Assembly (NCBI GenBank): GCA_937127445.1
Contig: CAKZLY010000021.1
Span: 15,886 to 79,885, forward strand
DNA: 64,000 nt
Source: an uncultured Ignavibacteria bacterium
GTDB lineage: Bacteria > Bacteroidota > Ignavibacteria > Kapaibacteriales > UBA2268
Reading direction: 5' to 3'
The position numbers and the translations under genes are program-made. This document shows, piece after piece, positions 19,009 to 57,717 of this stretch (within the stretch, counting starts at the first letter, position 1; each line of letters starts with the position of its first letter). The notes under the pieces are model-generated. The model was not told where the DNA came from, did not search any database, and was given only the letters and a program-made list of their open reading frames with translations.

Positions 19009-22000
19009 TTATCTTACTACAACAACCGGGAAGACTGATACTGATTCACCGGCTACCAATCTTACGTTGTAAGTACCGCTTGGCAAGAGCGAACCTTTCA
19101 CATCAACTGCATTCCATTCAACGTTGTAGCTGCCAGCATTGTATGGAGCATTGATAATTGTAGCGACTTTGTTACCAAGATTATCAAATACTTCCATTGT
19201 AACATTTGTAGCGTTAGCAATGTTGAAGTTAATGTTTGTAGCTGCTCTTACTGGGTTTGGTGAAACGCTATTTATACGTGATTCAGTAATATCGTTTTGA
19301 CCATCTACGCTTGTTGCCATATCATAGATAATGATGAAGGCATCGATAGCGTCCGAAAGAATTGTGATGCGTGCCAAATCTGGATTACCGCTAACTGAGC
19401 TTTCAACAATCACGTTCTGGCTATTTCTTACAGCACCTGTCTTCATATCAACTGAGAACAAGTTACCGTTTGAATAAGCATCACGGATGTACCAGCTTGC
19501 GCCTGTTGGGTTAACAGGATCGTTCTTAGCAGGAACAGCGCTTTTTGGCCAAGTAATAGTTACTGGGTAGAGGAGCGAGCCACTGCCAGTTGTTCTTTCG
19601 CCACCAGCTTGGAAGCGACCACGATATACTCTTTCACCACTTTGACCAGTCAGTGCTCTTGGATAGATGTTGCGGTGCAAACCATTGCGCGATGGGATTG
19701 ACCAGCGAGCATCAAATACGTCGTTTGGTGGATATGGTGGGATTTCGAATTCGCAGAGGTCATAGTCAATTGTTCCTACGTTATCGCCATCTGTTCCATC
19801 ACCAGTAGTTGCACCATTTGGAGCAGTACCAAACACAAGAGTTTGATTAGCACCCATTGCGTTTGCAACTGTAACAGGTACTAAGAAGTCTGTTGGCAAT
19901 GAAAGCTGCAATCTGAATTCAAGAACAGCAACTTTACCAGCTCTGTCGCGAGCTTCAATGCGAATAGTAACCTTACCGTCTGGATCGCGATTAAGGTTAA
20001 AGTTGTTTGTCCAGATACGGATTGTTGTATCAGCTTTGCTCAATGGTCCACGAATTGACGAAGGAGTAATATTGAGCTTAGTTGGATCGCTTGGTTTAAC
20101 CAAAGTTAATGTAATAACTTCGTCTGAATTTGTGCGAGCCAAATCTAAGTCTTTCAATGTGATGAATGCCTCCCATGGTTCGCCTTGGTCTATGCACTCT
20201 ACTGCTGGTACGCCAGAAAGTTCTGGTGTATGGTTCATTGGGAGAACCTTCAAGTTAAGTGTTTTAACAGCAGACAATCCATTTTCATCAGTAACGATAA
20301 CAGTTACTTTTTCATCTTTTGGAGCGTCCTGCATACCAGGAGTACCATAGAGCAAGCCACTTTCTGCGTTAATCTTCAACCATTTTGGCGTCTTTCTTTC
20401 TACATAGACTTTGCCTGCTTCTGGGAAGCATGGATCTATTGCTATAGAATCTGTTGGATAAGTATCGTAAGCAAGTGCAAATATTAAGCGTTCACCAGTA
20501 TTAGCATCGAACACTTTTACTATTCTTGTGCTATCCATCATTGATAAGTTGTAGTCAACACCTTCTTGTGCATTTGGTAATGCATCAGTTAGGATTTCAG
20601 GTGCGTAGTTAATATATACATCTAATAATTTTTCAGTTACTCCACCATGACCATCATTTGCAACGATTGCAAATACTGTATCGTTAATTAATGATGTTGG
20701 ATTTTGGTCGTTACGTCTCAAAAGACCCAAAGCAGTAGTTCTATCAATGCTGTAATGCAATTGACCTTTCGAGAGGAAGTCAAATCCATAAGGATCAGCA
20801 ACTGTTGGATTATCGTATTTAACCATATACTGGTTGGACATCCAAATTGGACGCAATTGTTTCATACCGAACACAACTGTATCAGGAGCATCGCCGCCAC
20901 GCATTGCAACATTCATAAATCCGTATGAAGTTCTGCCGTAGCGATAATCCCAATCCAATGCCCAGCTATCTTCTAATTCGTCGTCAGTGTTGAAGTCAAC
21001 TTTGAAGCGTAATCTATCAGTTAGATTTGCTTTTAGTTTACCAGTTGCTGTCTTACCGCAAGTGTATACAGTAGGTAAGTAGTCTTTCATTACGAAATCG
21101 CTTGAGTTCTTATTAACTTTAACCATAGCTGCACCAAGTGTAGTTCCAGGCTCTAAGAAACGTGGAGCGCTGTCAACTACAAACACTTTTACGGCTTGGC
21201 GAGTTAAGTAGTTCGAAGCAAAATCGATCGTATCTTGTTGCAAGTAACGAGCATTTGTTACATCATAGATTGGATTGCTAATATATTTCGGGAATATGTT
21301 AACAAATTGGTCTATAATGTCTTGTGGAGTATTGAGAGCTTTCAACACATCAACACTACGGTAGTGTGGTGGGAAGCTACGTACTTCGAGATAGAGATCT
21401 TCACCGCCTGGCACTACGTATGGGTTAAGCGGTTGACCTTTGAACATAAAGTAGCCACTTGCATTATCTTTTTGATATGTAGCTGCTAGTGTATCAACCA
21501 ACAACCATCTCTTAAGACCTGAGTTGTCATCAACTAACCAATTATAGAGCAAGTTGGAGTATTGATTTGGGTGCAGCAGTGAGCGTGGATCGTAGAACAT
21601 ATTGCTATCAATTGCTGTAACAGTCAAGATAGAATCGCGACCGCGATCATATCCACGACCAGTGTATGTACCGTTTGCAGCTGGGTATGTTCTATCTTCT
21701 GTAACGAATATCTTATTGATAAAGTCAGTTATAATTAATGTGTCCTTCTGACCAGGATTGAATTCAGAGTCGACAATCTTAATCACTGTATCTTGTGCTA
21801 AGCGAGCAAGATCGCCAGTAAATACTGGTGGCATTGTCGAACGAGTTACCTTAAACACAATACCATCATTGTATGCAGCCAATACGCCTTCGCGCCATAG
21901 AACTGTACGTGAAATGATGCGTACTACGTCGCCTGTATCAACTGGAAGTGCACGGTAACGTTCGCCAGCAAAGTAAGTTGTATTGGAAACAGGAGTTGTT

Positions 22001-25000
22001 CCAACAAATGTTCTATTGTTGTTTGGCATCGAAGGACGGTTGCTGAACAGATTGAATACTTTTGCTAAAGCGTTCGAATCTGCGTGGTATTTACGTCCTT
22101 GCAATGCTGCTGCATCTTCGTTATAAGCATCACGATATAATTTTTCAAGAAGAACTGGATTTGAATATGGAGCAAATGGGAACAAACCATTTGAACCAAG
22201 GTTCAAAAGACCTTCAGCACTTCTTCTAATTGACGAGTTTGGATTTCTATTTGATGAGTCAGGTACTAATTCAACTCTTGCGCGGAAGATTTCGCGATAG
22301 TTTGCATCTTCGCCAACTTGCTTGAAGTTTACGCGGATATAGTCGCCAGTTGTTTCGTTGATTACAAAGAATACTGATTCATTGAGCATTCTTGTGTCGT
22401 GGTTGTTCTTTTCAACTTCACCAGTGTTGTAATCAATCATTGTTTCGAGGAACAATGGATAGCCAATTGGGTGATAGTAGCGACCTGTTTCATCTGGTTT
22501 CCATTCGCCTTGAACTTGTGATAAGAATGGATACTTCAAGTTACCTTGGTCGTCGCGAGCTTCTACTGCGAATGGATCACGCAAGTAACGTTTTATGTAT
22601 TTACCATTAGATGGAGCGTTAGCAACGCTGTATCTCTTAACTTTTGGAGCGATACCAACTGCAAAGTCTTCAATCGGGCTCATACGGCGTTTTGTATAGT
22701 CAGCTGTCTTAATATCAGTTCCTTTATCGTAAATATCATAAATATGACCGCTCATTAAGTATTTTTCAGCAATGCTGTTGTCGCCAACTGTATTTTCATC
22801 TTGTCCGTTCTTGAGAACAATTGGAGTATAGTTGTATTTATCAATTGATTCGAATGGACCTTGTGTTCTTGGGTCTGAACTTGTTTGGAACAAGAATGGC
22901 AGATAGTTAGCATCAGCATTAACTACATTATATTGATCTGCTGGAGCAATATTTACAAAGAATGTTTCCATTCTTGCAAGTTCTGGTGAATTATGATTGT
23001 TTTCAATGTTCAAAAGAACATTAGCTTCGGTATGACCCCAGTAGTTGCCACGTAATGTATCAGTACCGCCTGCACCGATACCTGTTGTTCCAGCAAGAAC
23101 GCCCTTAGTGTTTGGTGCGTCTGGCAGACGGATCATAAAGCGAGCTGTGTTGCCATAGAATGAGTTTGCAGCCTCGCTGAAAATATATGATGGCAATGGA
23201 CCTTGTACTTCGCCATAGATTGTAGCAGGAGCCAAATCTGAAGAAGCAAAGTTGCCAATTGTTGTGTTCGATGCATCTTTAATCACTGGACCGCTAATGT
23301 AGTTCTGGCTCATACCAATTGTATTGCGTTCATCAGTCTTGTTGCCAGTTACAAGTGAGCGGTTAAAGATAAGTTTAAGGTCGTAGTTATCTGAATATAT
23401 TGCAGAACCAGTAAATGCAACGTTGTTTTGAATTCTAACGCGGTTGAACAATACTGCATCAATACGGTTAGTTCTATCGAGTGTAGCTTTATCTAATAAA
23501 TAGATTGCACCACCAAGACCAACGCCATTCTCTGGTAAGTTAGTTTCTTTATGCCAACGTTTTACATCGATAAGTGCCATATCAGCAGGTGTTACTTGCG
23601 ACCAAGTTGCACCAGCGTCTTTTGTTGCGAGCAACAATCCAACATTACCTGATACGAAACCTTCGTTGTTATTTACAAAATATACGCTATTGAGTGTATT
23701 TGTAGTTCCTGAGGTAAGAGCTGTCCAGTTGTTACCACCGTCAGTTGTCTTTACGATAGTACCACTTGCACCAACTGCATAACCAATATTTTGACCATAG
23801 AAGAAGATTGATTTAAGTTCTTGGTCTGTTCCGCTATTTACGAAATCCCAAGTATTCCCGCCATCGACAGTTTTAATCATCACACCAGCTTTGCCAGTAG
23901 CAAAACCAACTGTTGCGCTCTTGAACATAATGTAGTTGAGGTCCGAAGTAAGACCAGGCATTATCTGGACGTCCCAATTATCACCGCCATTAGTTGTGTA
24001 GAGAATTAAGCCTCTATCGCCAACTGCATAGCCTTTGTTTACACCAACCCAAGCAACTGATTGTAAATTGCGAGTTGCAGGACGTTTTACTGTCCAGTTT
24101 CCACCAGCGTCTGTGGTCTTCAAAATATAACCTTCGTCAGCAACAGCATAACCTACTTGCGTACCAACGAACAATATATCATTAATCTTAGGATCATTAG
24201 TAATTGATGGAACTGTTAATTTAGTCCAGGTTTGACCTTTGTTAGTTGTCTTCAAAATTGTTGTGTACGCACCAACTGCGTAGCCAATATCATCACTTGT
24301 AAAGTATATGTCAGTTAAATCAACGTTGGTGTTGGATGGCATAAAGTCCCATTTAGCACCGCCGTTGCTGAATTTAACGATCATACCATTGTTGCCAACA
24401 GCATAACCTTCTTTGTTATCAAGCCAGTAGATAGCATTGATATGATCGCTTGGAAGAGGTGTACCTTTACCAATTTGAGTTGTTCCGCTTCCCATTTGTG
24501 AATCAATAATTCCATTGTCAAGAATGATTGTATTATCAAGGAAGCGAGTAAGCATACGAACATCAGCAACGATTGGAGCATTTGAATATGTAAATGGTTC
24601 ATTTACTGATGTATATCCAATAGCAAAGCCATCTTTAGCATCATACATATCGTAATGAACTACATCAAGGTCGGTTACGAAAATTTTATGAATAGTAGTA
24701 ATTGGATTTGCAAGAGCAATTGCACCACCATTACCATTATATACCTTATTATTGATAAAGAGCGAACCTTTTACTAAGTTCAAGTCGCCATTGAGCGAGT
24801 ATATTGCACCACCACCACGGATATCTGGCTTATTAACATCAGCAACGTTTTCGCCAACAATATTTCCGTCGAAGTTAGCGCGAACCACTTGGATTAAGCG
24901 TTTGAATGGATCCATTCCAACATTATTAGGAATGTTGAATGCAAGAGCGCCACCATAATATCCAGCTTTGTTGTTCTGGAATATTACAGGATATTTGCCG

Positions 25001-27030
25001 CCATAGAATTGCAAGGAGCCATTGACGCCACCTGCACCAGTGATGATTGTATTTCTCTTTGAATATACAGCTCCACCGAATGAAGAAGCTATGTTATTTA
25101 CAAATTTAATATCAAACCCATAATCACGTGTATTCCAAGTGTTGTCGTGACCACCGATAACAGGGGATACTAAATTATAAACATTACCATCAACATAAAT
25201 TGCACCACCAGCACCAGCTTGGTTGTTTACAAAGTATGTTTGATTAGCAATTGTCAATGCAGCATCAACATCTGATCTTACTTTGAGTGCATCGCGTTGA
25301 CCGCCACGAATTTGAATGCGGTTCAGCGTGTTTTCAGCGAATATAGCACCACCCATCGAGAAGAAGCCGTTTCCAGATTCTGCATTGTTTGCACTTACAA
25401 GGAATGGAGCTTTAGTTTGGTTGTTTTCAAACTTACCGCTGAAAATAACGCTTGTATTAGCACCAACATAAATTGCACCACCACGAGCACCGAATGAGCT
25501 CATATGTCCTTGATAGTTTGAAGCTTCGTTGTTGGTTACTTCTAATGCGTCGTTATAACCAGGGTCTAATTCAACAACGTTTCCGTTGATAAGTAATCTG
25601 TCGTTCAAACCCAATGCAATTTCCATGCGGCGGTTTTCATTAGCTTCGTTACCTGCAATGTAGAGTGCACCGCCGAAAGCTTTATTGCCATAAGCAAATG
25701 GATAATCTGCGGCAACGTCGGTAAGTTCAGTTACAACTGTAACAGGAGGAACAGTATTTAATACTTTTTGTCCAACTTTTGCAAGGATAACTTTATTTCT
25801 GTCGAATTTCACATTACGGACACGACCTAAATAAACTGCTATACGAGCGTCGTCCCAAGCCATACGTTCAAGATCGAGAAGAGGTTCTGCAGTCGGATCG
25901 TCAATATTGTCAATTAATGGAATTTTGTAGCTTTTATTGATTTCAGAAATGTTTCCATTGCGATCAGTTAACTGTGGGTTTTTAGCATCTGGATAGTATG
26001 CAGTAGGTGTATTATAAACTGGGTAACCCTCTGGGGCTTGCAAAATTTGCAATGCACCGCCCCGAACACGAGCAATATTATCTTTGAAAGTTACATTAAT
26101 AAGCCAAGTTCTTGACGAGAATGTAGTCAAAGCACCGCCAGCACCATTAGCCAAACTCTTAATTCTATTCATCAAAGCGTTATATTCAAATGTATTCAAG
26201 CCTGGAAGGTCGCTTTGAGCATAGTAAGGATGACGGTCAACAGTTGTATCTTTCTTGAAGTTTTCAAATACTACATTACGGAAGAATGCAGCGCGAGCGC
26301 CTGGAAGCACAACGATATGTCCCCATTCACGTGAGAAATTATTCACTGGCTGGCCAATGAAGCGGATTCTTGATTGTGTGAAAGGAACTGCTGCGCCACC
26401 AAATCTCTTCCAAGGTGATGTTTTCAGGTTTGGATCATTTCCTGGATTTAAGTATAAACGAGCTGCCTGGAATGCGATTGCATATTCGAAAGGAATAATC
26501 ACATAACGTGGGTCAGTAGGCAAATTGTTAGGATCCAAGTTTACAATCTTGCGAGCAACTGTGTCCAATACAACATTGAAAATATGGTTGTATTTACTTG
26601 GATGAACGGTTGGGTCGCGACGTGTGTTATACGATAATGTTCTTGTCATACCATCATCGTATAAGAAATAGCGCATATCAGCATAACCAAAACCACCTTG
26701 GTCTGCTGGATATGTTGTTACAGGATCTGGAACTGCAGTTTGGTCGTAAGTAATACGAGCAAAACCGTCAGCAATGATACGACCGCCTGTTGAGTCGATT
26801 AAGCAGCTGTTGTCAAGGAATTTTACTGTTGTCCCTGGTTCAATAATAAGAGTACCGCCGACAACAAGCTTTTTGTTGATTACGTAAATTGAGTCTCTTT
26901 GGAACACTCTTACTTCTCCGGGAGCGATGCTGCCGGAAACGTAAGCAGTTGGCAACTGTGCATATCCTTCAACGCCAAGGAATATGCATAGTAACGCTGC
27001 CAAGAAACTCATACGAAAAAATCGTTGCAT
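19009..27030 (-). CDS. Giant secreted T9SS cargo protein (~2673 aa): Pmp-like beta-helix, 7-bladed BNR/Ycf48-like beta-propeller, Ig-like domains
   Basis: GGAGGT ribosome-binding site before MQRFFRM, signal peptide. Repeated GGA[ILV]Y / FxxN motifs. Seven TT(D/N)GGxxW(T/D) Asp-box repeats. CTD ...SGTYNVRLVAGESVSVFPVVVVR. Confidence 0.7.
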   Translation of the reverse strand: MQRFFRMSFLAALLCIFLGVEGYAQLPTAYVSGSIAPGEVRVFQRDSIYVINKKLVVGGTLIIEPGTTVKFLDNSCLIDSTGGRIIADGFARITYDQTAVPDPVTTYPADQGGFGYADMRYFLYDDGMTRTLSYNTRRDPTVHPSKYNHIFNVVLDTVARKIVNLDPNNLPTDPRYVIIPFEYAIAFQAARLYLNPGNDPNLKTSPWKRFGGAAVPFTQSRIRFIGQPVNNFSREWGHIVVLPGARAAFFRNVVFENFKKDTTVDRHPYYAQSDLPGLNTFEYNALMNRIKSLANGAGGALTTFSSRTWLINVTFKDNIARVRGGALQILQAPEGYPVYNTPTAYYPDAKNPQLTDRNGNISEINKSYKIPLIDNIDDPTAEPLLDLERMAWDDARIAVYLGRVRNVKFDRNKVILAKVGQKVLNTVPPVTVVTELTDVAADYPFAYGNKAFGGALYIAGNEANENRRMEIALGLNDRLLINGNVVELDPGYNDALEVTNNEASNYQGHMSSFGARGGAIYVGANTSVIFSGKFENNQTKAPFLVSANNAESGNGFFSMGGAIFAENTLNRIQIRGGQRDALKVRSDVDAALTIANQTYFVNNQAGAGGAIYVDGNVYNLVSPVIGGHDNTWNTRDYGFDIKFVNNIASSFGGAVYSKRNTIITGAGGVNGSLQFYGGKYPVIFQNNKAGYYGGALAFNIPNNVGMDPFKRLIQVVRANFDGNIVGENVADVNKPDIRGGGAIYSLNGDLNLVKGSLFINNKVYNGNGGAIALANPITTIHKIFVTDLDVVHYDMYDAKDGFAIGYTSVNEPFTYSNAPIVADVRMLTRFLDNTIILDNGIIDSQMGSGTTQIGKGTPLPSDHINAIYWLDNKEGYAVGNNGMIVKFSNGGAKWDFMPSNTNVDLTDIYFTSDDIGYAVGAYTTILKTTNKGQTWTKLTVPSITNDPKINDILFVGTQVGYAVADEGYILKTTDAGGNWTVKRPATRNLQSVAWVGVNKGYAVGDRGLILYTTNGGDNWDVQIMPGLTSDLNYIMFKSATVGFATGKAGVMIKTVDGGNTWDFVNSGTDQELKSIFFYGQNIGYAVGASGTIVKTTDGGNNWTALTSGTTNTLNSVYFVNNNEGFVSGNVGLLLATKDAGATWSQVTPADMALIDVKRWHKETNLPENGVGLGGAIYLLDKATLDRTNRIDAVLFNRVRIQNNVAFTGSAIYSDNYDLKLIFNRSLVTGNKTDERNTIGMSQNYISGPVIKDASNTTIGNFASSDLAPATIYGEVQGPLPSYIFSEAANSFYGNTARFMIRLPDAPNTKGVLAGTTGIGAGGTDTLRGNYWGHTEANVLLNIENNHNSPELARMETFFVNIAPADQYNVVNADANYLPFLFQTSSDPRTQGPFESIDKYNYTPIVLKNGQDENTVGDNSIAEKYLMSGHIYDIYDKGTDIKTADYTKRRMSPIEDFAVGIAPKVKRYSVANAPSNGKYIKRYLRDPFAVEARDDQGNLKYPFLSQVQGEWKPDETGRYYHPIGYPLFLETMIDYNTGEVEKNNHDTRMLNESVFFVINETTGDYIRVNFKQVGEDANYREIFRARVELVPDSSNRNPNSSIRRSAEGLLNLGSNGLFPFAPYSNPVLLEKLYRDAYNEDAAALQGRKYHADSNALAKVFNLFSNRPSMPNNNRTFVGTTPVSNTTYFAGERYRALPVDTGDVVRIISRTVLWREGVLAAYNDGIVFKVTRSTMPPVFTGDLARLAQDTVIKIVDSEFNPGQKDTLIITDFINKIFVTEDRTYPAANGTYTGRGYDRGRDSILTVTAIDSNMFYDPRSLLHPNQYSNLLYNWLVDDNSGLKRWLLVDTLAATYQKDNASGYFMFKGQPLNPYVVPGGEDLYLEVRSFPPHYRSVDVLKALNTPQDIIDQFVNIFPKYISNPIYDVTNARYLQQDTIDFASNYLTRQAVKVFVVDSAPRFLEPGTTLGAAMVKVNKNSSDFVMKDYLPTVYTCGKTATGKLKANLTDRLRFKVDFNTDDELEDSWALDWDYRYGRTSYGFMNVAMRGGDAPDTVVFGMKQLRPIWMSNQYMVKYDNPTVADPYGFDFLSKGQLHYSIDRTTALGLLRRNDQNPTSLINDTVFAIVANDGHGGVTEKLLDVYINYAPEILTDALPNAQEGVDYNLSMMDSTRIVKVFDANTGERLIFALAYDTYPTDSIAIDPCFPEAGKVYVERKTPKWLKINAESGLLYGTPGMQDAPKDEKVTVIVTDENGLSAVKTLNLKVLPMNHTPELSGVPAVECIDQGEPWEAFITLKDLDLARTNSDEVITLTLVKPSDPTKLNITPSSIRGPLSKADTTIRIWTNNFNLNRDPDGKVTIRIEARDRAGKVAVLEFRLQLSLPTDFLVPVTVANAMGANQTLVFGTAPNGATTGDGTDGDNVGTIDYDLCEFEIPPYPPNDVFDARWSIPSRNGLHRNIYPRALTGQSGERVYRGRFQAGGERTTGSGSLLYPVTITWPKSAVPAKNDPVNPTGASWYIRDAYSNGNLFSVDMKTGAVRNSQNVIVESSVSGNPDLARITILSDAIDAFIIIYDMATSVDGQNDITESRINSVSPNPVRAATNINFNIANATNVTMEVFDNLGNKVATIINAPYNAGSYNVEWNAVDVKGSLLPSGTYNVRLVAGESVSVFPVVVVR

Positions 27031-27130
27031 GTTACCTCCAAAATGTGAAAATTTTGTTATAAAATCTATGTTGCTTAAAAAATCTATGTTCATTTTGCAT
27101 CATATAATATTAAATATACATAAATACGTT

Positions 27131-28208: not shown

Positions 28209-31200
28209 CTATTTCACAACTTTTAGGGTTGTTGTTGTAGAATAGTTACCAGCATTAACAACAACAGTGTAGGTGCCTGCTGTCAGGTTTCTGAGGTCCA
28301 ATCTCAATTGATTTTCACCTGCGGCAATCGAGCCAAACGATTCAGCAAAAACTTTGCTTCCAGCAATATTATAAATTCCTACTAATGCTGAACCTTCAAC
28401 AGGTGAGTAGAACGAAACGTATGCATAGTCTTTCGCAGGATTTGGCGAAATTCCAGAAATTTCGAATGCACCATCACCCTCAATTGTTACTACTCTTGTG
28501 TTGCTATATGAAAATTCACCATTTTGGTCAATCATCTTCAATCTATAAGCATATGACTTACCAGCAGAAACGCTTCTATCGATAACTGGACCATATTCAG
28601 TAGCAACTGCTGAATTACCTTTTGCCTTAACTTCATCAATTTTAGCAAATGCACCAATACCGAATTCATTAACTTTTGCTTTTTCAATATCAAATCTTGA
28701 TGAATTTACTTCTGATGCACTTACCCAGTTAAGTTCGACACGTTTTCCAACAGCATTAGCATCAAACGAGAACAGTTCGATTGGAATAATTGTTCCGCCA
28801 TTGTTCTGAACATAGTCCATCGAAGCGCGAATGAGAGCATCTGCCATTGGGAAATGTCTCCAATCAAGCCCGAAGTAAATCACATTTGTAAACAGCGATG
28901 ATGATGCAATACACATAATTTTTTGATCGAACATTATTGTGTCAGGATTGATATAGAACATACCAACACGTGCAACACCTACACCGCTTTCAGTCATATT
29001 CACTACGTCGCCAACAGGTTTCGGATCGCCAAGGAAGCCAGTTGGAACTGCTGCAAAATCGATATTGCGAGCAACTGCGAAACCACGAACCACTGATAAT
29101 GAATCGAACGGACGTGTTACCTTTGGAGTTGCTCTTAATATCTTTTCTGTGAAGTATGTTCCATCAAGGTATTGAGGAATACCATTTTGACGAACAACAT
29201 CTTGGCTTGCAATGATAAAGTTGCTCTTATCGTTCAATTTCCCTTTGTTTAAGAATTTCAAAACATCGCCGATTACGTAGGTTGTGTACATTTTATCGTT
29301 AGCATCACCAAAGAAGAGCGAACGATACATTGTATAGTTTACCGAACGTTCTTCCCAGCCGCGGCGATCGAAAATATCGAAGTCGTGGTCTGCTTCACCC
29401 TTCATCTGGAACCATCCGATTCTACGGAATGCAGTAATCAAAGTATCAGCATTCAAACGTCCAGCAATTTGGTCCATCTGCTGTGGTGTCGGGTTCGAAA
29501 CGGTATCGATATTCACAAAGCTATTTTCTACAGATAAGAGCAAATCGAGCTTAGCACGTTTCAAATAGAAGCGAACAATTTTATCTTCGAGCACATTGTT
29601 CGAAGTCATTTCATCTGGTTGAGCAAGGCTTACTCTTATTCTATAACGAGGAGTAACATTAGGCAGCATTGTAGAGAAGTGTTGAGGAACATTGTATCCA
29701 ACAACTTGCGAGTAAGTGAGTGGAATAAAGTCGTCGTTGTCTTTACCATCACCCAATCCGAATACTACAACAGCATCATCAGTTGGGCTAATCTGAGCAG
29801 TAACGATTTTAGGAGCAACTGCTGGAATAACGAAGTTGCCTAATGTATCTTCGCGGAATATTTCTACTTTTATTTGAGCAGCTGATTGGAGCATATTACC
29901 ATTGTTGCGAACAATTGCTTTGACTTCAACCGGCGACTGCGTCATAATGTATTCAGCATCATTGAAAAGCGATGTTAGACGTAGGTCTTGATAAGCACCA
30001 GGAGCTACGATCGAGTGAATTTCTATATCGTTATTGAGCAATCTACCATTGAATTCGCAAGCGCCAATATCATAACGTTGATTTGCAAAACCACGTAAAT
30101 TACCATCAATATCAGAGCTTAATACATCATATCTTGTACCACGGTTGTTAATCTTAGAGTTAATTGGAGTTGGGTTCGATTTTACTCTCAAATTGCCAGG
30201 ATTGGAACCAATCATTTCGTGATCTTGCAAGAAGTTGTAGTCAACAGAATAAATATCGCAACCAGTCCAATATCTCCATTGGTTCAATGTTTTGAATTCT
30301 CCAGTAAAGCCAAGAGTGAGCAAGTTGCGTTCAACATCTACTTCAATATAGCGATAATAGTCAATTCCGCTTGCAAGCCAGAACGCATTACGTTCAATTT
30401 TAGTACCATCTTCTTTTGGTTTTTCGTTGTAATAGAATACAGCGGTTTTTGTTTCAACAGAACTTGCAATGTTATCGTCCAGAATTGCAATAGCGTTGTT
30501 GCCCATAGTCAAATCTTTGTTCTGCATTACAGCAATGCCAGCAATATTACCAGTGTTGGCAAACTGATCGTTTGGAATAATTATAGTATTGTTAATAATT
30601 TTATCTTCACGAGTAAAGAAACCAGCTTTTGCTGGTGAAAGTATTCTATCGTTAAAGTTTGGCACATTAATGTTACGAGCAGTAGCAAGATAAATACCTG
30701 CAATGTGAGCAGCAGCGTTATTAACCTTCAAATCGTAGATCATATTATTTACAACTACGAATTTTTCTTTGTCTTTCGGGAAGAATTGAGTGCGTGTTGC
30801 ACCTTCCTGCAGTGTATAAGAAGCCTGTTCAATTTTCACGCCGAAAGTAATAAACGATGATTTAATATTGCTGATTTCGTTACCATCAATTCTAATATTG
30901 TTATTGTGATATCCCAAAAATCCTGCTTTGTCTTCGCCACCGACAATAATACCTGCTGCATCGCTTGTTGTAGCATTAATATTATATATACGGTTCTGAG
31001 CAATCAATGTATTTTCTTCGTAGCCAACAAAAATACCAGCACGTCCAACATCATAAATTTTATTCTTGATAAATTTGTTATTGTTGTTCAAATACTTGGT
31101 AATTGTTACTTCTGGACCTCTAATTTTATCCAAAACGCCCAAGCCAAGAGAAACAATACCATAACCGAATTTTGTAATTTCGTTGTTCTCAATTACTATA

Positions 31201-33695
31201 TTATTAATGTTAAGAGTATCCAGCTTGTAATAGTTATTTTGAGTGCTGGTGAAGAATGGTGGAGTGTTCCTTAATACAAAGCCAGCAGAATAAGTCCCAG
31301 ACGTACGAACATTTTCTTCGAATGTATAAAGGCTACGGTCTGCAATAAATTCGAATTTTACATTTGGGAGACTCGAAGCATACGAAGTTGTGCTGCTTTC
31401 GCCATCAACAATACAGTTCTTAACAGTAATGTTGCGAGAACCATTGCTGAAATAGAACGGAACGCGGAACATTACAGATGGCGGAGTATGCATTTTGAAG
31501 ACAAGTGATTTTTGAGGACCACCGTCAAATACAATATATCCATCGCTTGCTGCATAATCGTTCTTATGTTCGTTCAATACCGAATTAATCGGAGCAAACG
31601 CAGATGTTTGATTATGATTCTGACCAAACAAAATCCCAATACCTGATGCGCTATAAAGATTGACGACCACACTTGCACGATTTGCCATTTTCTGTTGCGA
31701 AGGACGAATAATTATTTTAGCGTTTTCTGAAGCACCAATAATCTTGGTTCTCAAATCAAGTGCAGGGTATGATAAATTTATATCCCCTAAATTGTATGTA
31801 TCATCTTCTAATTCCAATACAACTTCGCCAGAAATACCCTTTTTGTAAATTTCGTCAAATGCTTGAGAAAGGCTTGTAAAATTATTGCTTCCTGTGCAAC
31901 TCGAACAAACTTTGTACGTTCCAACCAATCCAGATTTAACAACAAACGTTGTTGTATAAGTATTGTCAACAGGATTACCTTCTGATGGATGGTCTATCAT
32001 TATTGTTGCTGTATATGTCCCAGTAGCAGTTGGAACAAACTCATTCGGGAAACGAACTATTTTATATGGTGGAAAGGTCGAAGGAATGATATCGATATCT
32101 GTTTGATCCTGGAAAACAACCTGCCCCTGTGAGTTGGTAATAGTAATAGTTGCTAATGCACCAAAAATATCTTCGAAACCATTGTTCTGCACTCTAATAA
32201 CCACAGGTTGTGGACGCAATTTGTAGTTATCGCTTGCAGTAGGTGAAAACAATGTATCAGGCTGAGCATCAACACCGTAAGTAACCTTAAATATATGTGG
32301 CGTTCCACCCATCGGAGGGAAGAAATCGTTTGATGGATTTAGATCCTGCGAGTTAAGCAAGTATACTCTTACGCGAACTTCATACTCGCCAACTTCTGTT
32401 GGAGCAAAATTCTGGAAGAAAATTGTTGTGTTTGTCCCAGGTTGTAGCGGTGCAGTTTTATTTACCCATATCACATTTGGTGGCTGATGAACTAAAACGT
32501 TATTTTTGTAAATTCTGCATTCAACGCGGAACGAATCAACAGGATTAATTCCAGAGTTTTGAACTGTAATTCCAAGAGGAATTGTTGTACCAGAAAGTGG
32601 ATATTTTGTGAACTCTTTTTTAAGCGGATATGGTATGCCCAATGCAACCAAATCCCACGGTAACGCAATATAAAACTTTTGTTGGAAATCTTGTGTCAGA
32701 TCAGGTCTTCCTTCTACTTCAAATCGAGAATAAATAGTATATTCACCACTCGCAATACCAGGATTTGATAGGTCAAGCTGACCGGTTGGACCCTCCAGCG
32801 GATCAACATTTGCTGCAATACCTTTTGCATGAGTAAATCTATAACGAACAGGGTTAGGATCTCCAACAATTGTCAATGGAATTCTTGTTACACTCAAATT
32901 ACCTTCTGCTGTTGCAACATAAATAGTATCTGGATTTGGACTTGTCGATGGGCCTACAATAGCATAACTTACGTAAACAGTTGGTTGAATAGAAGCACGT
33001 TTAATATTTACAGATGGATGATTGTTGTGTTCAAATGGGATTACTGAACCCGCTGTCAAAACTGTTGAAGCAGGCGGATAAACAGCTGTCATTTGAGGAT
33101 TTGAAAGAATTTCTATTCTTGCATTGGGACGTGGTACTGTTCCAGCGCTTGTCCCAGAAAAAGTCAAAGCACATCCGTCGCCATCTCCGTAGCGAACATG
33201 GGCTCGCCCAGAAATATTAGTGCCATATACGTTTGTTATCGCTCCATAATTTGAGTTATTATAGCAAATTTTCACTAACAAGTTTCCGCCAGTATAATTA
33301 AAGTAATTTGCTGGCTGAAAACTAAATTTATTCCACCCAGAAGAAGTTACTGTGTATGAAGGAGTGGAATATACAAGTTGCCATCCAGAAGCAACAGGAG
33401 CTGATATCGAGGTCAACGTTGTATTCTGCATATATATGGAAAATCCAGCATAAGAAGCATATGTAGGACTTATCACATTAATCGAGAATCCTCTAATCAA
33501 TCCAGGATTGCCACCGGCACCAATGATTTCAGCAGCCGTATACAAATAAAAGCAAGCTGCATCTGGATTATCATTAAACGGATAAAAACTTGTAACTGTT
33601 CCCGTTCCAATCTGGATTTCTTGAGAACGAACAGTCCCAGCAAGCACTGAAAGCACTATTGCTACAATGCTAAACCATCTTAAAAATTTTCTCAT
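28209..33695 (-). CDS. Giant secreted T9SS cargo protein (~1828 aa) with parallel beta-helix repeats
   Basis: GAGAGG ribosome-binding site before MRKFLRW, signal peptide. Periodic N/I-rich beta-helix repeats. CTD ...GTYTVVVNAGNYSTTTTLKVVK. Confidence 0.65.
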   Translation of the reverse strand: MRKFLRWFSIVAIVLSVLAGTVRSQEIQIGTGTVTSFYPFNDNPDAACFYLYTAAEIIGAGGNPGLIRGFSINVISPTYASYAGFSIYMQNTTLTSISAPVASGWQLVYSTPSYTVTSSGWNKFSFQPANYFNYTGGNLLVKICYNNSNYGAITNVYGTNISGRAHVRYGDGDGCALTFSGTSAGTVPRPNARIEILSNPQMTAVYPPASTVLTAGSVIPFEHNNHPSVNIKRASIQPTVYVSYAIVGPSTSPNPDTIYVATAEGNLSVTRIPLTIVGDPNPVRYRFTHAKGIAANVDPLEGPTGQLDLSNPGIASGEYTIYSRFEVEGRPDLTQDFQQKFYIALPWDLVALGIPYPLKKEFTKYPLSGTTIPLGITVQNSGINPVDSFRVECRIYKNNVLVHQPPNVIWVNKTAPLQPGTNTTIFFQNFAPTEVGEYEVRVRVYLLNSQDLNPSNDFFPPMGGTPHIFKVTYGVDAQPDTLFSPTASDNYKLRPQPVVIRVQNNGFEDIFGALATITITNSQGQVVFQDQTDIDIIPSTFPPYKIVRFPNEFVPTATGTYTATIMIDHPSEGNPVDNTYTTTFVVKSGLVGTYKVCSSCTGSNNFTSLSQAFDEIYKKGISGEVVLELEDDTYNLGDINLSYPALDLRTKIIGASENAKIIIRPSQQKMANRASVVVNLYSASGIGILFGQNHNQTSAFAPINSVLNEHKNDYAASDGYIVFDGGPQKSLVFKMHTPPSVMFRVPFYFSNGSRNITVKNCIVDGESSTTSYASSLPNVKFEFIADRSLYTFEENVRTSGTYSAGFVLRNTPPFFTSTQNNYYKLDTLNINNIVIENNEITKFGYGIVSLGLGVLDKIRGPEVTITKYLNNNNKFIKNKIYDVGRAGIFVGYEENTLIAQNRIYNINATTSDAAGIIVGGEDKAGFLGYHNNNIRIDGNEISNIKSSFITFGVKIEQASYTLQEGATRTQFFPKDKEKFVVVNNMIYDLKVNNAAAHIAGIYLATARNINVPNFNDRILSPAKAGFFTREDKIINNTIIIPNDQFANTGNIAGIAVMQNKDLTMGNNAIAILDDNIASSVETKTAVFYYNEKPKEDGTKIERNAFWLASGIDYYRYIEVDVERNLLTLGFTGEFKTLNQWRYWTGCDIYSVDYNFLQDHEMIGSNPGNLRVKSNPTPINSKINNRGTRYDVLSSDIDGNLRGFANQRYDIGACEFNGRLLNNDIEIHSIVAPGAYQDLRLTSLFNDAEYIMTQSPVEVKAIVRNNGNMLQSAAQIKVEIFREDTLGNFVIPAVAPKIVTAQISPTDDAVVVFGLGDGKDNDDFIPLTYSQVVGYNVPQHFSTMLPNVTPRYRIRVSLAQPDEMTSNNVLEDKIVRFYLKRAKLDLLLSVENSFVNIDTVSNPTPQQMDQIAGRLNADTLITAFRRIGWFQMKGEADHDFDIFDRRGWEERSVNYTMYRSLFFGDANDKMYTTYVIGDVLKFLNKGKLNDKSNFIIASQDVVRQNGIPQYLDGTYFTEKILRATPKVTRPFDSLSVVRGFAVARNIDFAAVPTGFLGDPKPVGDVVNMTESGVGVARVGMFYINPDTIMFDQKIMCIASSSLFTNVIYFGLDWRHFPMADALIRASMDYVQNNGGTIIPIELFSFDANAVGKRVELNWVSASEVNSSRFDIEKAKVNEFGIGAFAKIDEVKAKGNSAVATEYGPVIDRSVSAGKSYAYRLKMIDQNGEFSYSNTRVVTIEGDGAFEISGISPNPAKDYAYVSFYSPVEGSALVGIYNIAGSKVFAESFGSIAAGENQLRLDLRNLTAGTYTVVVNAGNYSTTTTLKVVK

Positions 33696-33854
33696 TAATA
33701 ACCTCTCAAATAGTAACAAAATATATTTTTATGCTCACTAAATAATTGCAAATAGCAAGTTACATTAAAATTAACAATTTTTATAGAAATAAATATAATG
33801 ATAATATAACAAATTTATAATAAAATTGTTACAAAAGAAAAATAAAAATAAAAA

Positions 33855-33965
33855 AACCGTTGCTCTGTAAAAATTTTTTAACAAGGGGATGACATTTTCG
33901 CTGATTTTTAATCGGCGGGATACAGAGCAACGGTTGCCGATTTCATCGCTTTTGCGATGTTTTTA
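33855..33965 (+). promoter_or_regulatory. Structured leader or sRNA-like element upstream of mgtE: 15-bp perfect stem, a competing 7-bp hairpin, and an intrinsic terminator
   Basis: AACCGTTGCTCTGTA (33855-69) pairs perfectly with TACAGAGCAACGGTT (33921-35). AATCGGC/GCCGATT (33910-16/33936-42) is mutually exclusive with that stem. CATCGC-TTTT-GCGATG followed by TTTTT at 33944-64. Confidence 0.4.
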
Positions 33966-34260
33966 AATACACATTTTTTCTTGATACAAAATAATCGATT
34001 TTTTTTCTAAAAAATTATAGTCTAAAATGTGATTTTATTGTAGTAAAGTACCACTTCAATTTGTAGTGCTTACCACTACAAAATTTCCCTTCTATTTTAT
34101 CATTATTTTTGATAATTTTGTATGATTTATGTTTAACAAACATTTGAACGAAATGTCCAAATCTGATGATCCTGGCAGTTGGGTTATCTCTTTAATTAAC
34201 GAAATTATGTAGTTGCGGGGATGGTTTTGCAGCTATCTCCGCCTAAAGTGTGGAGGTAAT

Positions 34261-35640
34261 ATGCAAAACATCATCATTCTTCCTGAGCTAAAAGAACTTA
34301 TCGAAGCTAAGGAGTTCGATGTAATCAAAGAAATTTTTTATGATTCTCACTCCGCCGAAATTGCAGAACAAATCTCAGTCCTCGAGCCAGAAGAAGCCTG
34401 GCAAATAATTGAACTATTCGACAAACACCGCCGTGCTGAAATTTTCAGTTTTTTAGACCTTCAGATACAGGTCGATATTGCCGAAATTATTGAACGCAGC
34501 AAACTTGTCGACCTGCTCACCGAAATGTCCTCCGACGACAGAGTTGACCTTTTCAAACGCTTCCCCGAAGAAAAGCAGGAACTCATTCTCCCGTTGCTCG
34601 CACAAGCCGAACGCGAGGATATTCGCCGCCTTGCGGAATACCCCGAAGGTAGCGCCGGTTCCGTTATGACCTCGGAATACGTCGCTATCCCAGATAACAT
34701 CACTGTTGATGAAGCTATCCGTAGAATTCGATTAGAAGCATCTCAAAAAGAAACTATCTTTTATATTTATGTTATAAATGAAAAGCGACAACTTATTGGG
34801 TTTGTCTCTCTTACCGATTTGATTATGGCTCATCCCAACACCCGCATTAAAGACATAATGAAAAGAGATGTAATCTACGTTACAATCGACGAGGACCAGG
34901 AAAAAGTTGCTCGCAAAATCCAAAAATACGACTTAATCGCCATACCCGTTGTCAATGGCAATAATGTGTTAGTCGGTATCGTTACCCACGACGACGCTAT
35001 CGACATCATCACACAAGAACAAACAGAAGACCTTGAAAAGTTCATGGCTATCGCCGGTGCTCACGCTGCCGCCGCCTACAACAAAACACCCGTTATCACG
35101 CATTTTAAAAATCGTGCCGTGTGGGTTGTTTCGCTTGCGGCAATTGGGTTAGTTTCAGGTATGATTATTCATTCATTCGAAAATACCCTGATGAACCTAA
35201 TGATATTGGCTCTTTATATGCCTATGGTTGCTGATACTGGCGGCAACGTAGGTAGTCAGTCTGCAACGGTTGTTGTGCGTGCATTAGCTCTGGGCGAAGT
35301 TACCTCCCGTGATTTTTTCAAGGTTATCTGGAAAGAATTTAGAATTTCTCTTCTGCTTGCATTGGCATTAGGTATGCTTTCGTGGATCAAAGTCGTTTTT
35401 CTTTCATCCAATTCAGAAATACCTGTAAACTTTTCTTTACAACAAATTAGTATAGTTATTGCGATTGCTCTCTCACTTCAAGTTGTTACTGCAACTTTAA
35501 TTGGCGCTATGCTTCCGCTGATTGCAACTAAATTTAAGCTCGACCCCGCTGTTGTTGCTAGTCCAGCGCTTACTACTATCGTTGATATTACTGGGCTTTT
35601 GATATATTTCTCAACTGCAAAATTTTTGCTTGGTCTCTAA
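34261..35640 (+). CDS. mgtE: Magnesium transporter MgtE
   Basis: GGAGG ribosome-binding site. MgtE N-domain, tandem CBS domains, 5-TM C-terminal domain with a PMVADTGGN-like motif. Confidence 0.9.
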   Translation: MQNIIILPELKELIEAKEFDVIKEIFYDSHSAEIAEQISVLEPEEAWQIIELFDKHRRAEIFSFLDLQIQVDIAEIIERSKLVDLLTEMSSDDRVDLFKRFPEEKQELILPLLAQAEREDIRRLAEYPEGSAGSVMTSEYVAIPDNITVDEAIRRIRLEASQKETIFYIYVINEKRQLIGFVSLTDLIMAHPNTRIKDIMKRDVIYVTIDEDQEKVARKIQKYDLIAIPVVNGNNVLVGIVTHDDAIDIITQEQTEDLEKFMAIAGAHAAAAYNKTPVITHFKNRAVWVVSLAAIGLVSGMIIHSFENTLMNLMILALYMPMVADTGGNVGSQSATVVVRALALGEVTSRDFFKVIWKEFRISLLLALALGMLSWIKVVFLSSNSEIPVNFSLQQISIVIAIALSLQVVTATLIGAMLPLIATKFKLDPAVVASPALTTIVDITGLLIYFSTAKFLLGL

Positions 35641-40307: not shown

Positions 40308-40519
40308 AATATAACTCCAAATAATAATTATGTTTATACAAAACACAAAATTAGTTTAATTATATGAGTTTTCAAAAAAATATTGCATTGTATTCGCAAA
40401 TAGAAATATACAACAAAATAAAATCAAAATCTATCTTGTATTGATATGATCGGAGTAGCTCCCAACTAATAAAGAAAAGTCTATCGATTAATAACAAATT
40501 GTTCTATAATTAAGTGTAA

Positions 40520-41266
40520 TTAATAATTTATTACTTTAAATAATAGGTCGTTCCCTTCTAATTCGTATTCAACATATTTTATTGGAACACATCTATTATT
40601 CATATCATTGAAATGCTTTAAACTTTCTATTATTTTTTTATAATTTTCTGAAGTTTTGTTAAGTATTTTTTTAGAAATCAATACTGGTTGAATATCGCTA
40701 ATTCTATTAGGGACATAATATTGCTCTAACCAATCAACATATCTTTGGATTTGAAGAGTATTATCTATTCTCGCTTCAGTCGCTTTAAGTTCGATAAGCA
40801 AAACAAGTCTTCTGTTGTCACCAATGAGAGAAAGCATTATACCCATTTTTTGCATACCAACACCACAAGCAACCTCATTTCCTAACCATTCTTAAACCTC
40901 AAAAGTTTCAAGCAAAGTTCTAAATGTTAATGACTTGATAAGTTCACTTTTTAAAAATTGATTGGAATCGTTATTATCCAAAAAAGATAAATCTTCTTTG
41001 GTTTTAAAAATACCATAGAATTTACCTTCTCATACTTTTTCAGAGTAATTTTGTTGTAAATAGAAAACGACAAAATCACCCTTTCTGATTCTTTGAGAGT
41101 CAGCAATCATTCCAACCAGATTATTTTCTGTTGAGTAATTCAACTGTGATCTCGGGTTATCATTAAAATCAATATAGTTTTCTTTTGCTCCTGTCCCAGC
41201 AAATTGGTATTCTAAATGATACTTAAATGTGTTAGTGTCAACAATGAAAACATGCGTTGTGCTCAT
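40520..41266 (-). pseudogene. PD-(D/E)xK restriction endonuclease-like gene disrupted by two in-frame stop codons (TGA at 41027-29, TAA near 40880)
   Basis: ORFs 41030..41266 and 40520..40855 are in the same frame, separated only by two nonsense codons. (D/E)xK motif LVLLIELKAT. Start overlaps the upstream methyltransferase by 4 nt. Confidence 0.55.
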
Positions 41267-55668: not shown

Positions 55669-57540
55669 TTGAAGTTGAATATGGATCGAAATTCATTTAT
55701 CGGAATGACCTTAATTATGTTGCTCATCTTTGGCTGGCTCTTCTATATGTCAGTTACGGAAGCGCCACCTCCGCCAAAAGACAAAGCAGCGGACACAACA
55801 GCTCATCAATTGCCCGAGAAAGTTCAGGATAGCCTTGCATCCGTAAAAACAATTGCTGATACTCTACAAACTCAGCAACGCTATGGTATTTTTTCACAAT
55901 TCGCTTCGCGAAACGAAACAATTTACACAATTGAAAATGATCTTTTCGTTGCTGAAATTTCCTCCCGAGGCGCTGCTCTTAAATCCTGGAAACTTAAAAA
56001 CTACAAGAAATGGGATAAAACACCTGTCCAGCTCGTTCGACACGGCAATGGCGAACTTTATATGAATTTTGTTTCTCTGGAAGCTAAAAAAATAGACACC
56101 CGCGATCTGAATTTTTCGCTTGCCAATCAATCCCCAACTAACATAAAAATTCAAGGTAATCAATCTGCCAACCTTGTTTTTGAGCTTGATTTAGGGAACA
56201 ATCGCAAAATTAAGAAAGTCATTAAGTTCTTCGGCGATAAGTACCATATAGAACAGAACATCACTGTTTCTAATTTAGAGGACATTCTTCCATCGCGTGG
56301 TTATAATTTAGTATGGGAAAAGGGATTGCCACCTCAAGAATATAATAGCGTTGACGAAGCAAACGATGCTATGGCAGTTGTCCAGATGAATGGTGAAGTT
56401 GAAGAAGTAAATGCAACCGAAACCAAACCAACCGAAAAGAGCTTTACAGGTATAATAGATTATGCTGCAATCAAAACAAAGTATTTCGCTACTTCGATTA
56501 TGCCGCAGCCGTGGCAGAGCTACGATGGTACAGTTGATATTTCGGGGTTCGTTCGCCACCACGCCAACAATGGAATTACCGAAACTTATTCTATAAACTA
56601 TCGTATACCGTACAAAGGCGGCGAGCAGGTGAACAGCTTCAAAGTGTTCATCGGTCCGCTCGAATACAATATAGTTCGTTCATATGGAATGAATGCTTTG
56701 ATTAATTTCGGCTGGCGTTTCTTAATTCGCCCGATTGGTGAATACTTTATGCTACCAATATTCCAGTTTGTACATAAATTTGTACCAAACTACGGTATAG
56801 CAATTTTAATTTTCTCTCTGATAATCAAGCTTTTGCTGCATCCGCTATCGATTACTCAAATGCGTTCAGCTCAAAAGATGCAACTTCTTTCGCCTGAAAT
56901 GGAAAAAATCCGCACCAAATATAAAGACGACCAACAAACTCAACAAAAGGAAATAATGAAACTTTATTCCGAATATGGAATAAATCCAGCAAGCGGATGC
57001 TTGCCGTTGCTGCTACAAATGCCAATTTTATTTGCATTGTGGGCTGTACTGCGTTCGGCAATAGAGCTTCGTCAAGAACCATTTATTTGGTGGATTACCG
57101 ATTTATCGATGCCCGACAAAATTTTGAGTTTCGGTTTTTCGTTCCTTGGAATTAGCCATCTATCAGGCTTAGCGCTGCTAATGGGTGCAACTATGTTCAT
57201 TCAGCAGAAGATGACCATTACGGACCCACGTCAGAAAGCAATGGTTTATATGATGCCGGTAATGTTTATTTTCTTGTTCTCGAATTTCCCATCAGGTCTG
57301 AATTTATATTATTTCTTCTTTAATTTGCTGTCGATTGGACAACAAATCTATATAAACAAGTTTTCTAAAAAACGCTTAACACTCGAAGACTTAAAGAAAA
57401 TGCCCAAAAAAGAAGGCTGGCTGCAACGCAAAATGCGGGAAGCTCAGGAATTAGCTGAAGCCCAAGGGCGCACTCTACCCGGAGTAAAAACACATCATAA
57501 CAACAAGCCAAACCAAAACCGCCCAAAACGTAAAAAGTAG
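55669..57540 (+). CDS. yidC: Membrane protein insertase YidC
   Basis: N-terminal TM helix, large periplasmic domain, C-terminal 5-TM 60-kDa IMP domain, basic C-terminal tail. Confidence 0.9.
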   Translation: MKLNMDRNSFIGMTLIMLLIFGWLFYMSVTEAPPPPKDKAADTTAHQLPEKVQDSLASVKTIADTLQTQQRYGIFSQFASRNETIYTIENDLFVAEISSRGAALKSWKLKNYKKWDKTPVQLVRHGNGELYMNFVSLEAKKIDTRDLNFSLANQSPTNIKIQGNQSANLVFELDLGNNRKIKKVIKFFGDKYHIEQNITVSNLEDILPSRGYNLVWEKGLPPQEYNSVDEANDAMAVVQMNGEVEEVNATETKPTEKSFTGIIDYAAIKTKYFATSIMPQPWQSYDGTVDISGFVRHHANNGITETYSINYRIPYKGGEQVNSFKVFIGPLEYNIVRSYGMNALINFGWRFLIRPIGEYFMLPIFQFVHKFVPNYGIAILIFSLIIKLLLHPLSITQMRSAQKMQLLSPEMEKIRTKYKDDQQTQQKEIMKLYSEYGINPASGCLPLLLQMPILFALWAVLRSAIELRQEPFIWWITDLSMPDKILSFGFSFLGISHLSGLALLMGATMFIQQKMTITDPRQKAMVYMMPVMFIFLFSNFPSGLNLYYFFFNLLSIGQQIYINKFSKKRLTLEDLKKMPKKEGWLQRKMREAQELAEAQGRTLPGVKTHHNNKPNQNRPKRKK

Positions 57541-57556
57541 AATATTTTATAATATA

Positions 57557-57595
57557 AAACAAAGGTTGCTTCGATGAGTAACCTTTGTTTTATAT
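57557..57595 (+). terminator. Rho-independent terminator after yidC
   Basis: AAAACAAAGGTT-loop-AACCTTTGTTTT followed by ATATAAT. Confidence 0.6.
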
Positions 57596-57717
57596 AATCA
57601 AACTTGTTTGCAATTAAACTTTATTTTACGACTTGCGAAATAATTGAAACACTTTTTGAAATAATGCGTATTTACAATTAAGAATGCCTCCTATAACAAA
57701 CTTAGCGTAAAATTTCT

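Follow-up and report, generated by a model that had tools for sequence, protein, structure and literature searches.

The window, a stretch of 64,000 nucleotides (64 kb) of DNA, contains a 565-nt intergenic gap, a divergent promoter region with a giant T9SS gene on one side and mgtE on the other. The left neighbour lies on the minus strand, starts with an ATG at 33695 and encodes an 1828-aa protein with a T9SS tail. The right neighbour lies on the plus strand and encodes MgtE with its MgtE_N, CBS and MgtE domains; its ATG at 34261 is preceded by a GGAGG Shine-Dalgarno (SD) sequence. Because the nearest MgtE loci (92-96% amino acid identity) come from 'Candidatus Kapabacteria/Kapaibacterium' MAGs, the source organism is, judged by these sequences, a Kapabacterium (FCB group). 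A structured element was found in the gap, on the same strand as mgtE. As the preliminary description of this DNA stated, no plus-strand gene lies upstream of the element. The T-run of its terminator is 297 nt away from the mgtE ATG, close to the earlier estimate of about 295 nt. The features of the region are collected in Table 1.

The 1828-aa protein carries a T9SS C-terminal sorting domain, a beta-helix and a CARDB domain. Its gene (28209-33695) stands in tandem with a second giant minus-strand gene (19009-27093), which encodes 2694 aa, and a 241-aa ORF and a tRNA gene lie between the two. In 5.8 billion proteins, the 1828-aa protein had relatives only in its own clade (two clusters) and in one further case, at 34% identity. 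Elsewhere in the window, G+C content is lowest at 40-42 kb (0.30), and about 950 nt at 40308-41262 contain no ORF of at least 120 codons and gave no Rfam match.

Table 1. Features of the region between the giant T9SS gene and mgtE, including predicted and candidate signals (positions in the window).
Feature	Position	Strand	Sequence	Remarks
Candidate sigma-70-like promoter	33771..33799	+	TTAACA-17-TATAAT	11/12 consensus; predicted transcription start site (TSS) ~33806
-7 box of the giant T9SS gene	33810..33817	-	TAAATTTG	exact TAnnTTTG, invariant, 115 nt upstream of ATG 33695
Degenerate -7-box candidate	33821..33828	+	TAAAATTG	predicted TSS ~33835
A-rich tract abutting P1	33837..33854	+	GAAAAATAAAAATAAAAA	invariant in all 8 aligned loci
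P1, 5' arm	33855..33869	+	AACCGTTGCTCTGTA	15-bp perfect complement of 33921-35
Junction segment	33870..33895	+	AAAAAUUUUUUAACAAGGGGAUGACAU	conserved, mostly single-stranded
P3 hairpin	33896..33920	+	UUUCGCUGAUU-UUU-AAUCGGCGGGA	10-11 bp, three U·G pairs
P1, 3' arm	33921..33935	+	TACAGAGCAACGGTT	complement of 33855-69
Linker	33936..33943	+	GCCGATTT	first 7 nt can pair with 33910-16
P4 intrinsic terminator	33944..33964	+	CATCGC-TTTT-GCGATG + T5	found by terminator scan
Block after terminator	33960..33981	+	TTTTTAAATACACATTTTTTCT	22 nt, identical even in the most divergent lineages
-7 box of mgtE	34113..34120	+	TAATTTTG	exact TAnnTTTG in all lineages; predicted TSS ~34127
uORF in the mgtE leader	34153..34212	+	MSKSDDPGSWVISLINEIM*	conserved peptide MSKSDDPG...
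Hairpin in the mgtE leader	34215..34258	+	GCGGGGAUGG...CUAUCUCCGC	begins 3 nt past the uORF stop (34210-12)

The pairings reported earlier for the element were recovered. The 15-bp stem is perfect, with its 5' arm the exact reverse complement of its 3' arm, and a 7-bp pairing of AATCGGC (33910-16) with GCCGATT (33936-42) is present. The canonical intrinsic terminator, CATCGC-TTTT-GCGATG-TTTTT, was likewise found in the sequence and by a terminator scan, but its coordinates had been placed one base too far to the right; the stem occupies 33944-49 and 33954-59 and the T5 run 33960-64, on the plus strand. The 7-bp helix and the 15-bp stem (P1) had been described as mutually exclusive. Topologically they are, because 0 nt separate the 3' arms of the two helices, but the competition is very unequal (-34.2 kcal/mol versus -9.1 kcal/mol).

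The plus strand of the element folds at -43.9 kcal/mol (z = -6.6), and none of the 200 shuffled sequences folded equally well; the minus strand folds at -36.4 kcal/mol (z = -4.1). Only two places in the 64-kb window have a perfect inverted repeat whose arms reach 15 bp or more and whose loop does not exceed 100 nt (0/60 Markov simulations). The structure of the element goes beyond chance. The other inverted repeat (57552-57596; 16 bp, short loop) lies just past a gene end at 57540 and is presumably the terminator of that gene.

The consensus fold consists of P1 (13-15 bp), a long junction segment on the 5' side, the hairpin P3, an 8-nt linker and the terminator P4. Within the junction segment, a P2 hairpin is marginal and depends on U·G pairs, with a folding energy of 0.0 kcal/mol on its own. 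P2 is unstable by itself, which leaves about 26 nt, the invariant AACAAGGGGAUG among them, effectively single-stranded. This segment, in which AACAAGGGGATG does not vary across any of the lineages, is a candidate seed or protein-binding loop. P3 is more stable on the plus strand (-11.4 kcal/mol) than on the minus strand (-5.3 kcal/mol), and P4 has a stem of 6-7 bp with a UUUU loop and a U5 tail (-8.6 to -10.4 kcal/mol). Both flanks of this core are conserved as well. The A-rich tract could form an unpaired 5' leader of the RNA; its minus-strand reading is a U-tract following P1, or else an UP-like element belonging to the promoter of the giant gene. The block after the terminator is 100% identical between the window and L004/L096 despite diverged flanks. 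It is possibly a 3' extension able to pair with the A-rich tract, or a DNA site; when 33835-33982 was folded as a whole, it paired with 33835-42.

We found the element in 14 loci, with six distinct sequences from about four lineages, all in one narrow Kapabacteria clade in which MgtE is at least 92% identical. The 14 loci include the GTDB genomes L001-L004 and the metagenome contigs L090, L093 and L096, the latter from a pattern scan, while another six are on contigs fetched via MgtE look-ups. The pattern scan of metagenomes gave 24 matches, of which three were real, all of them syntenic copies. In every one of the 14 loci, the element lies between the giant T9SS gene and mgtE in the same orientation, and these loci do not distinguish linkage to mgtE from linkage to the giant gene.

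A covariance model of the element (R1), built from its copies, was used for a search of 80 GTDB mgtE loci and had no match in the 76 more distant ones. The element was not found upstream of mgtE at 70-74% MgtE identity (L105, L108 and L140-L143), nor where MgtE identity was 61% or less. R1 also gave no match at L117, the locus of the sole distant orthologue of the giant gene (34% identity), and no second copy elsewhere in the 64-kb window. Hence, the element is a single-copy feature of one narrow clade. The preliminary description had made conservation of the structure upstream of mgtE orthologues a test of its reading. This conservation holds within the clade, where three P1 pairs covary, and is absent at MgtE identities of 74% and below. 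A phage or mobile origin was rejected, as 21 matches in viral contigs were at chance level by covariance model score. A repeat element or MITE was rejected as well, with a single copy in 64 kb and a scan that returned syntenic copies only; no target-site duplications flank the element in the sequence.

Sequence conservation of the element was compared with that of mgtE. Between the window and L004, the element is 75-100% identical, whereas third codon positions of mgtE are only 51% identical; across all element-bearing lineages, these positions are 51-67% identical to the window. By this comparison, the element is far better conserved than the synonymous sites of mgtE. The whole intergenic region (33700-34260) is approximately 85-100% identical to that of L001-L003, for which third positions of mgtE are 61-67% identical. 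Because intergenic identity is far above third-position identity, nearly the entire divergent regulatory region would be either constrained or recently exchanged by recombination.

Pairing is kept in 97% of the cells of the alignment. Three P1 pairs changed on both sides (A:U to C:G, C:G to U:A and A:U to U:A), against no compensatory double changes in a control with the partners slid. This covariation is thin and confined to P1, given six distinct sequences from about four lineages. P3 is 100% paired in seven distinct rows and shows a U·G to U-A change in L002, L003 and L090. The only variation in P4 is in L003, where a G-C pair has become G·U; only the plus strand tolerates this, and the same holds for a one-sided change in P2 (C-G to U-G). 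Moreover, three U·G pairs of P3 become A·C mismatches if read on the minus strand. Because these G·U pairs and changes fit the plus strand only, the functional molecule is most likely a plus-strand RNA.

The same data bear on two explanations that do not involve a plus-strand RNA. The first is an element acting as DNA, either as protein-binding sites for a regulator of the divergent promoters or as a short switch inverted by a recombinase. A DNA palindrome or recombination site, too, would appear as a perfect inverted repeat whose two arms carry compensatory changes, and the location in a shared regulatory region would suit it. However, the copies have one orientation relative to their flanks, the G·U-dependent P3 and P4 are meaningless in duplex DNA, and neither a second copy in the window nor flanking duplications were found. 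We regard action as DNA as highly improbable. An inverton in particular was rejected on the fixed orientation relative to mgtE in 14/14 loci, and the 51-bp spacer is too short for any inverton known to us.

The second is a terminator or insulator between the divergent promoters, working on the minus strand or in both directions, or else a minus-strand sRNA. Here P1 on the minus strand, followed by U7AU5AU5, would stop antisense transcription from the mgtE side before it reached the giant-gene promoter, and P4 with its U5 tail would stop transcription in the opposite direction. The element indeed lies exactly between two promoters, the A/T tract abutting P1 is invariant, and the minus strand still folds significantly. 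Conserved near-consensus -7 boxes are also present on the minus strand at 33987-94 (TTAnTTTG) and 34079-86 (exact in L004/L096). Yet an insulator has no need of the 51-nt interior, which is conserved as strongly as the stems, and a branched loop of this size is atypical for a terminator hairpin. On the minus strand, P3 would carry two to three A·C mismatches in every sequence, and the A-tract can also be explained by the UP-like element of the giant-gene promoter. In view of both sides, this explanation seems unlikely.

The element belongs to no known RNA family. It had been suggested not to match the M-box, and indeed RF00380 was matched neither at gathering score in the window nor at E<=10 in 33650-34300 on both strands. 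With Rfam 15 at gathering score, the whole window gave four tRNAs only, and the permissive scan of 33650-34300 (E<=10) returned only noise. No M-box was found in a scan of 17 related and unrelated mgtE loci, Clostridia included. The riboswitch scan works, because TPP riboswitches were detected just downstream of mgtE in two Eubacterium loci (L071 5397-5497 and L075 5388-5488). The element is also non-coding. A small protein gene of 25 codons (ATG at 33889, with AAGGGG before the start) was considered and rejected; its reading frame is altered in L002, L003 and L004 and cut to seven codons in L096.

Promoters in the window were assessed by their -7 boxes. TAnnTTTG precedes all four tRNA genes of the window by 10-37 nt (boxes at 61794, 51144, 28004 and 61736), and TAnnTTTG(T) occurs within 150 nt upstream of many protein genes; further boxes are at 33810, 34113, 36435, 37291, 40346, 41754, 42511 and 52345. 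Because such boxes precede all four tRNAs and many genes, this Kapabacterium appears to use housekeeping promoters of the Bacteroidetes-style TAnnTTTG type. In the intergenic region, only two exact boxes are conserved in all lineages, one on the minus strand for the giant T9SS gene and one on the plus strand for mgtE. The nn positions of the mgtE box vary between lineages (TAATTTTG, TAAATTTG and TATTTTTG). The box lies about 150 nt past the terminator and the predicted start site about 160 nt past it. From this sequence pattern, mgtE has its own conserved promoter of the Bacteroidota type, and its own leader, downstream of the terminator.

Some repeats surround this promoter. The hexamer TGTAGT recurs at 34039-34045, 34061-34067, 34076-34082 and 34207-34213, and a palindrome, TTGTAGT-N8-ACTACAA, has its centre some 55 nt before the predicted start of mgtE transcription. 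Because the left arm of the palindrome changes without compensation and the right half-site (ACTACAAAAAT) is invariant, it resembles an operator for a protein more than an RNA hairpin.

The mgtE leader contains a conserved uORF, in which D/E codons differ synonymously between lineages. Related uORFs occur at 70-74% MgtE identity, with the peptide starts MPEPEEPG, MPDSDEPG, MHDSDEPG and MSDSDEPD. Upstream of mgtE, uORFs with a [DE]PG motif were found in 10 of the 84 loci, against none in 84 reverse-complement controls, and DE/P-rich uORFs in 12/83 loci against 1/83 controls. The loci with such uORFs include Poribacteria, Desulfobacterota, Thermotogae, Victivallales and Clostridia (sites at L105 2376, L141 2896, L143 2876 and L108 1628; also in L140, L014, L017 and L018). 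The hairpin that follows the uORF in the window is part of the RNAalifold consensus, and one pair that has gone from G·U to A-U in the L004 lineage speaks for it. Its 3' arm, CUCCGC, has an alternative pairing with the mgtE SD, GUGGAGG (34250-56), and the minimum free energy fold of the leader sequesters both SD and AUG. An arrangement of SD-like arm, anti-SD and SD was also seen by eye in L143 and L105. A covariance model of the leader (R2) was restricted to the clade, and other lineages were related at the peptide level only.

These features resemble the leader of mgtA, in which N-terminal DE/P motifs of the peptide MgtL (EPDP) destabilise the translating ribosome, more so at low Mg2+ (bioRxiv 10.1101/2021.02.02.429294). 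This ribosome destabilisation and abortive translation switch the leader and thereby induce mgtA (bioRxiv 10.1101/2021.02.02.429294). Both systems have a short ORF in the leader of an Mg2+ transporter gene, with an acidic/proline motif at the N-terminus (EPDP in enterobacterial MgtL; SDDPG, EPEEPG or SDEPG in the mgtE uORFs) and alternative hairpins after it. They differ in that mgtA encodes a P-type ATPase and mgtE a channel, in the phyla concerned, and in output, which is Rho-dependent termination for MgtL and predicted SD sequestration for the mgtE leader. At the sequence level, the uORF at 34153-34212 combines the DE/P motif and the alternative hairpins that mark an MgtL-type leader peptide. 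On this evidence, mgtE appears to be controlled by an acidic/proline leader peptide and hairpins that can sequester the SD. If translation of the uORF aborted at low Mg2+, the anti-sequestor hairpin would persist and the mgtE SD would stay accessible. If ribosomes instead reached the stop codon at 34210-12, they would unwind the hairpin's 5' arm, and CUCCGC could then sequester the SD. In the literature, we found no paper describing an MgtL-like leader peptide for mgtE.

The preliminary description offered two options, a riboswitch or attenuator in the leader of mgtE, or an independent small RNA. The first was not supported, since the terminator overlaps no alternative pairing and mgtE has its own promoter and leader; the separate sRNA is the better option. 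In detail, P1 ends at 33935 and the 7-bp helix at 33942, and the terminator, which starts at 33944, is involved in neither. The 7-bp helix found no support as a conserved switch. Across homologues it is paired to only 81%, and in L004/L096 it falls out of register; changes in L002 and L003 that seem to keep it also extend the terminator stem through pairing of A-tract and U-tail. With a modelled junction energy of -34 kcal/mol, the 15-bp P1 would be too stable to switch, and a switch of this kind is not plausible. Because nothing conserved competes with the terminator, no expression platform is visible.

A distal attenuator or riboswitch in a long mgtE leader (~430 nt) can nevertheless be formulated. 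A transcript begun upstream of the element would bind Mg2+ or some other ligand at the P1/P2/P3 junction, the bound ligand would decide between stop and read-through at P4, and this would form a second layer of control beside the proximal mgtE promoter. The constant position directly upstream of mgtE on the same strand (14/14 loci), a three-way junction followed by a terminator, as in many riboswitches, and the further conserved blocks between terminator and mgtE are consistent with it, and GGGGAUG (33885-91) could form an imperfect helix with the terminator's 5' arm. However, this pairing, the sole anti-terminator candidate, includes a G·G mismatch and does not covary, the terminator stands clear of the perfect 15-bp P1 and of the alternative helix, and a conserved promoter and a complete uORF leader intervene before mgtE. 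The element is also linked equally to the giant gene, is missing from the mgtE upstream regions of the next-closest lineages and matches no Rfam riboswitch. We therefore consider a distal attenuator improbable.

Comparison with known mgtE-linked RNAs gives a similar picture. Like the M-box (ykoK leader, RF00380), which lies upstream of Bacillus mgtE, the element is located upstream of mgtE on the same strand and is followed by a terminator. In contrast to the M-box, a multi-helix RNA of about 160 nt whose aptamer is coupled to the terminator via a shared or competing strand, it has an 81-nt core with two hairpins and an uncoupled terminator, 297 nt from the ATG and with the conserved promoter at 34113-20 in between. 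A second comparison is a riboswitch candidate from Thioalkalivibrio, the 'mgtE motif'. This structured RNA is confined to one genus, is associated with mgtE and has the mgtE SD and AUG at the base of its P4 stem (Narunsky et al., NAR 2024, PMC11109978). This motif is a precedent for clade-limited RNAs linked to mgtE. Compared by description rather than by sequence, however, it is a proximal translational leader, whereas our element is distal with its own terminator, and the position of the Thioalkalivibrio motif is more comparable to the leader at 34150-34260 than to the element.

The best explanation, to which we give about even odds, is that the element is a separate plus-strand gene for a non-coding small RNA that ends at its own terminator. 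The gene would be located in the divergent promoter region between the giant T9SS gene and mgtE, and its RNA would be approximately 110-160 nt long, starting somewhere in 33806-33845 and ending at the terminator at 33964. An A-rich 5' tail would be followed by the very stable closing helix P1 (13-15 bp), holding open a junction with the ~26-nt conserved and largely unpaired UUUUCAACAAGGGGAUG and the G·U-containing P3. After the 8-nt linker, the Rho-independent terminator (P4 + U5) would also form the 3' end. We infer that the RNA has its own promoter and acts in trans; P1 and P4 would stabilise it, and the open loop would pair with target mRNAs or bind a protein.

The element shares several properties with terminator-ended, trans-acting sRNAs. 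It has an intrinsic terminator at its 3' end and no conserved reading frame, and it is intergenic, non-coding, approximately 100-160 nt long and narrow in phylogenetic range. A conserved unpaired segment between stable helices and a GC-rich hairpin with a U-run at the end are further likenesses to this class. Compared with intergenic sRNAs of Bacteroidota and Firmicutes, the perfect closing helix of 15 bp is unusually long. Among the 44 gene starts of the 64-kb window, no targets stood out above background; the best duplex energy was no better than that of shuffled seeds, and matches to the seed complement were at chance level.

One weak point of the sRNA explanation is its promoter. No exact TAnnTTTG box conserved in all lineages was found upstream of the element on the plus strand, and the candidates are a degenerate box, a sigma-70-like pair and an exact box specific to L004/L096. 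The degenerate box, TAAAATTG, departs from TAnnTTTG at one position in the window, L001 and L003 and at two in L002, L004 and L096; together with the giant gene's box on the minus strand it makes up a palindrome. The hexamers of the sigma-70-like pair are kept in L004/L096 as TTAACA-16-TGTAAT, with a varying spacer. The exact box of L004/L096, TACATTTG, lies at the equivalent of 33830-37. Furthermore, the invariant A-tract abutting P1 makes a good minus-strand terminator too, and an sRNA leaves both this tract and the 22 nt after the terminator unexplained.

Taken alone, the element is a narrow-range sRNA candidate of ordinary architecture without a target, and its general interest is modest. 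If expressed, it would be among the first candidate regulatory RNAs described for Kapabacteria, to our knowledge an uncultured lineage of the FCB group for which no RNA biology has been recorded, and a clean case of an sRNA gene nested between divergent Bacteroidota-type promoters. A broader reading would make it a new clade-specific RNA of Mg2+ homeostasis, either as a distal attenuator of mgtE responsive to a ligand or ion, or as an sRNA acting on the MgtL-like mgtE leader. Because the heptamer GGGGAUG is present both in the element and in the anti-sequestor arm at 34217-23, the sRNA could compete for the CUAUCUCCGC strand. We consider this broader reading a long shot; if true, it would add an RNA layer to a leader-peptide switch of a kind so far undescribed for MgtE channels.

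The more consequential outcome speaks against the riboswitch idea, as mgtE in this window is most likely not controlled by an M-box-like riboswitch, and the acidic-proline leader peptide of mgtE is of greater interest than the element itself. The recurrence of comparable DE/P-rich uORFs before mgtE genes of several phyla suggests that MgtL-style sensing of Mg2+ via ribosome destabilisation may be used far beyond enterobacterial mgtA.
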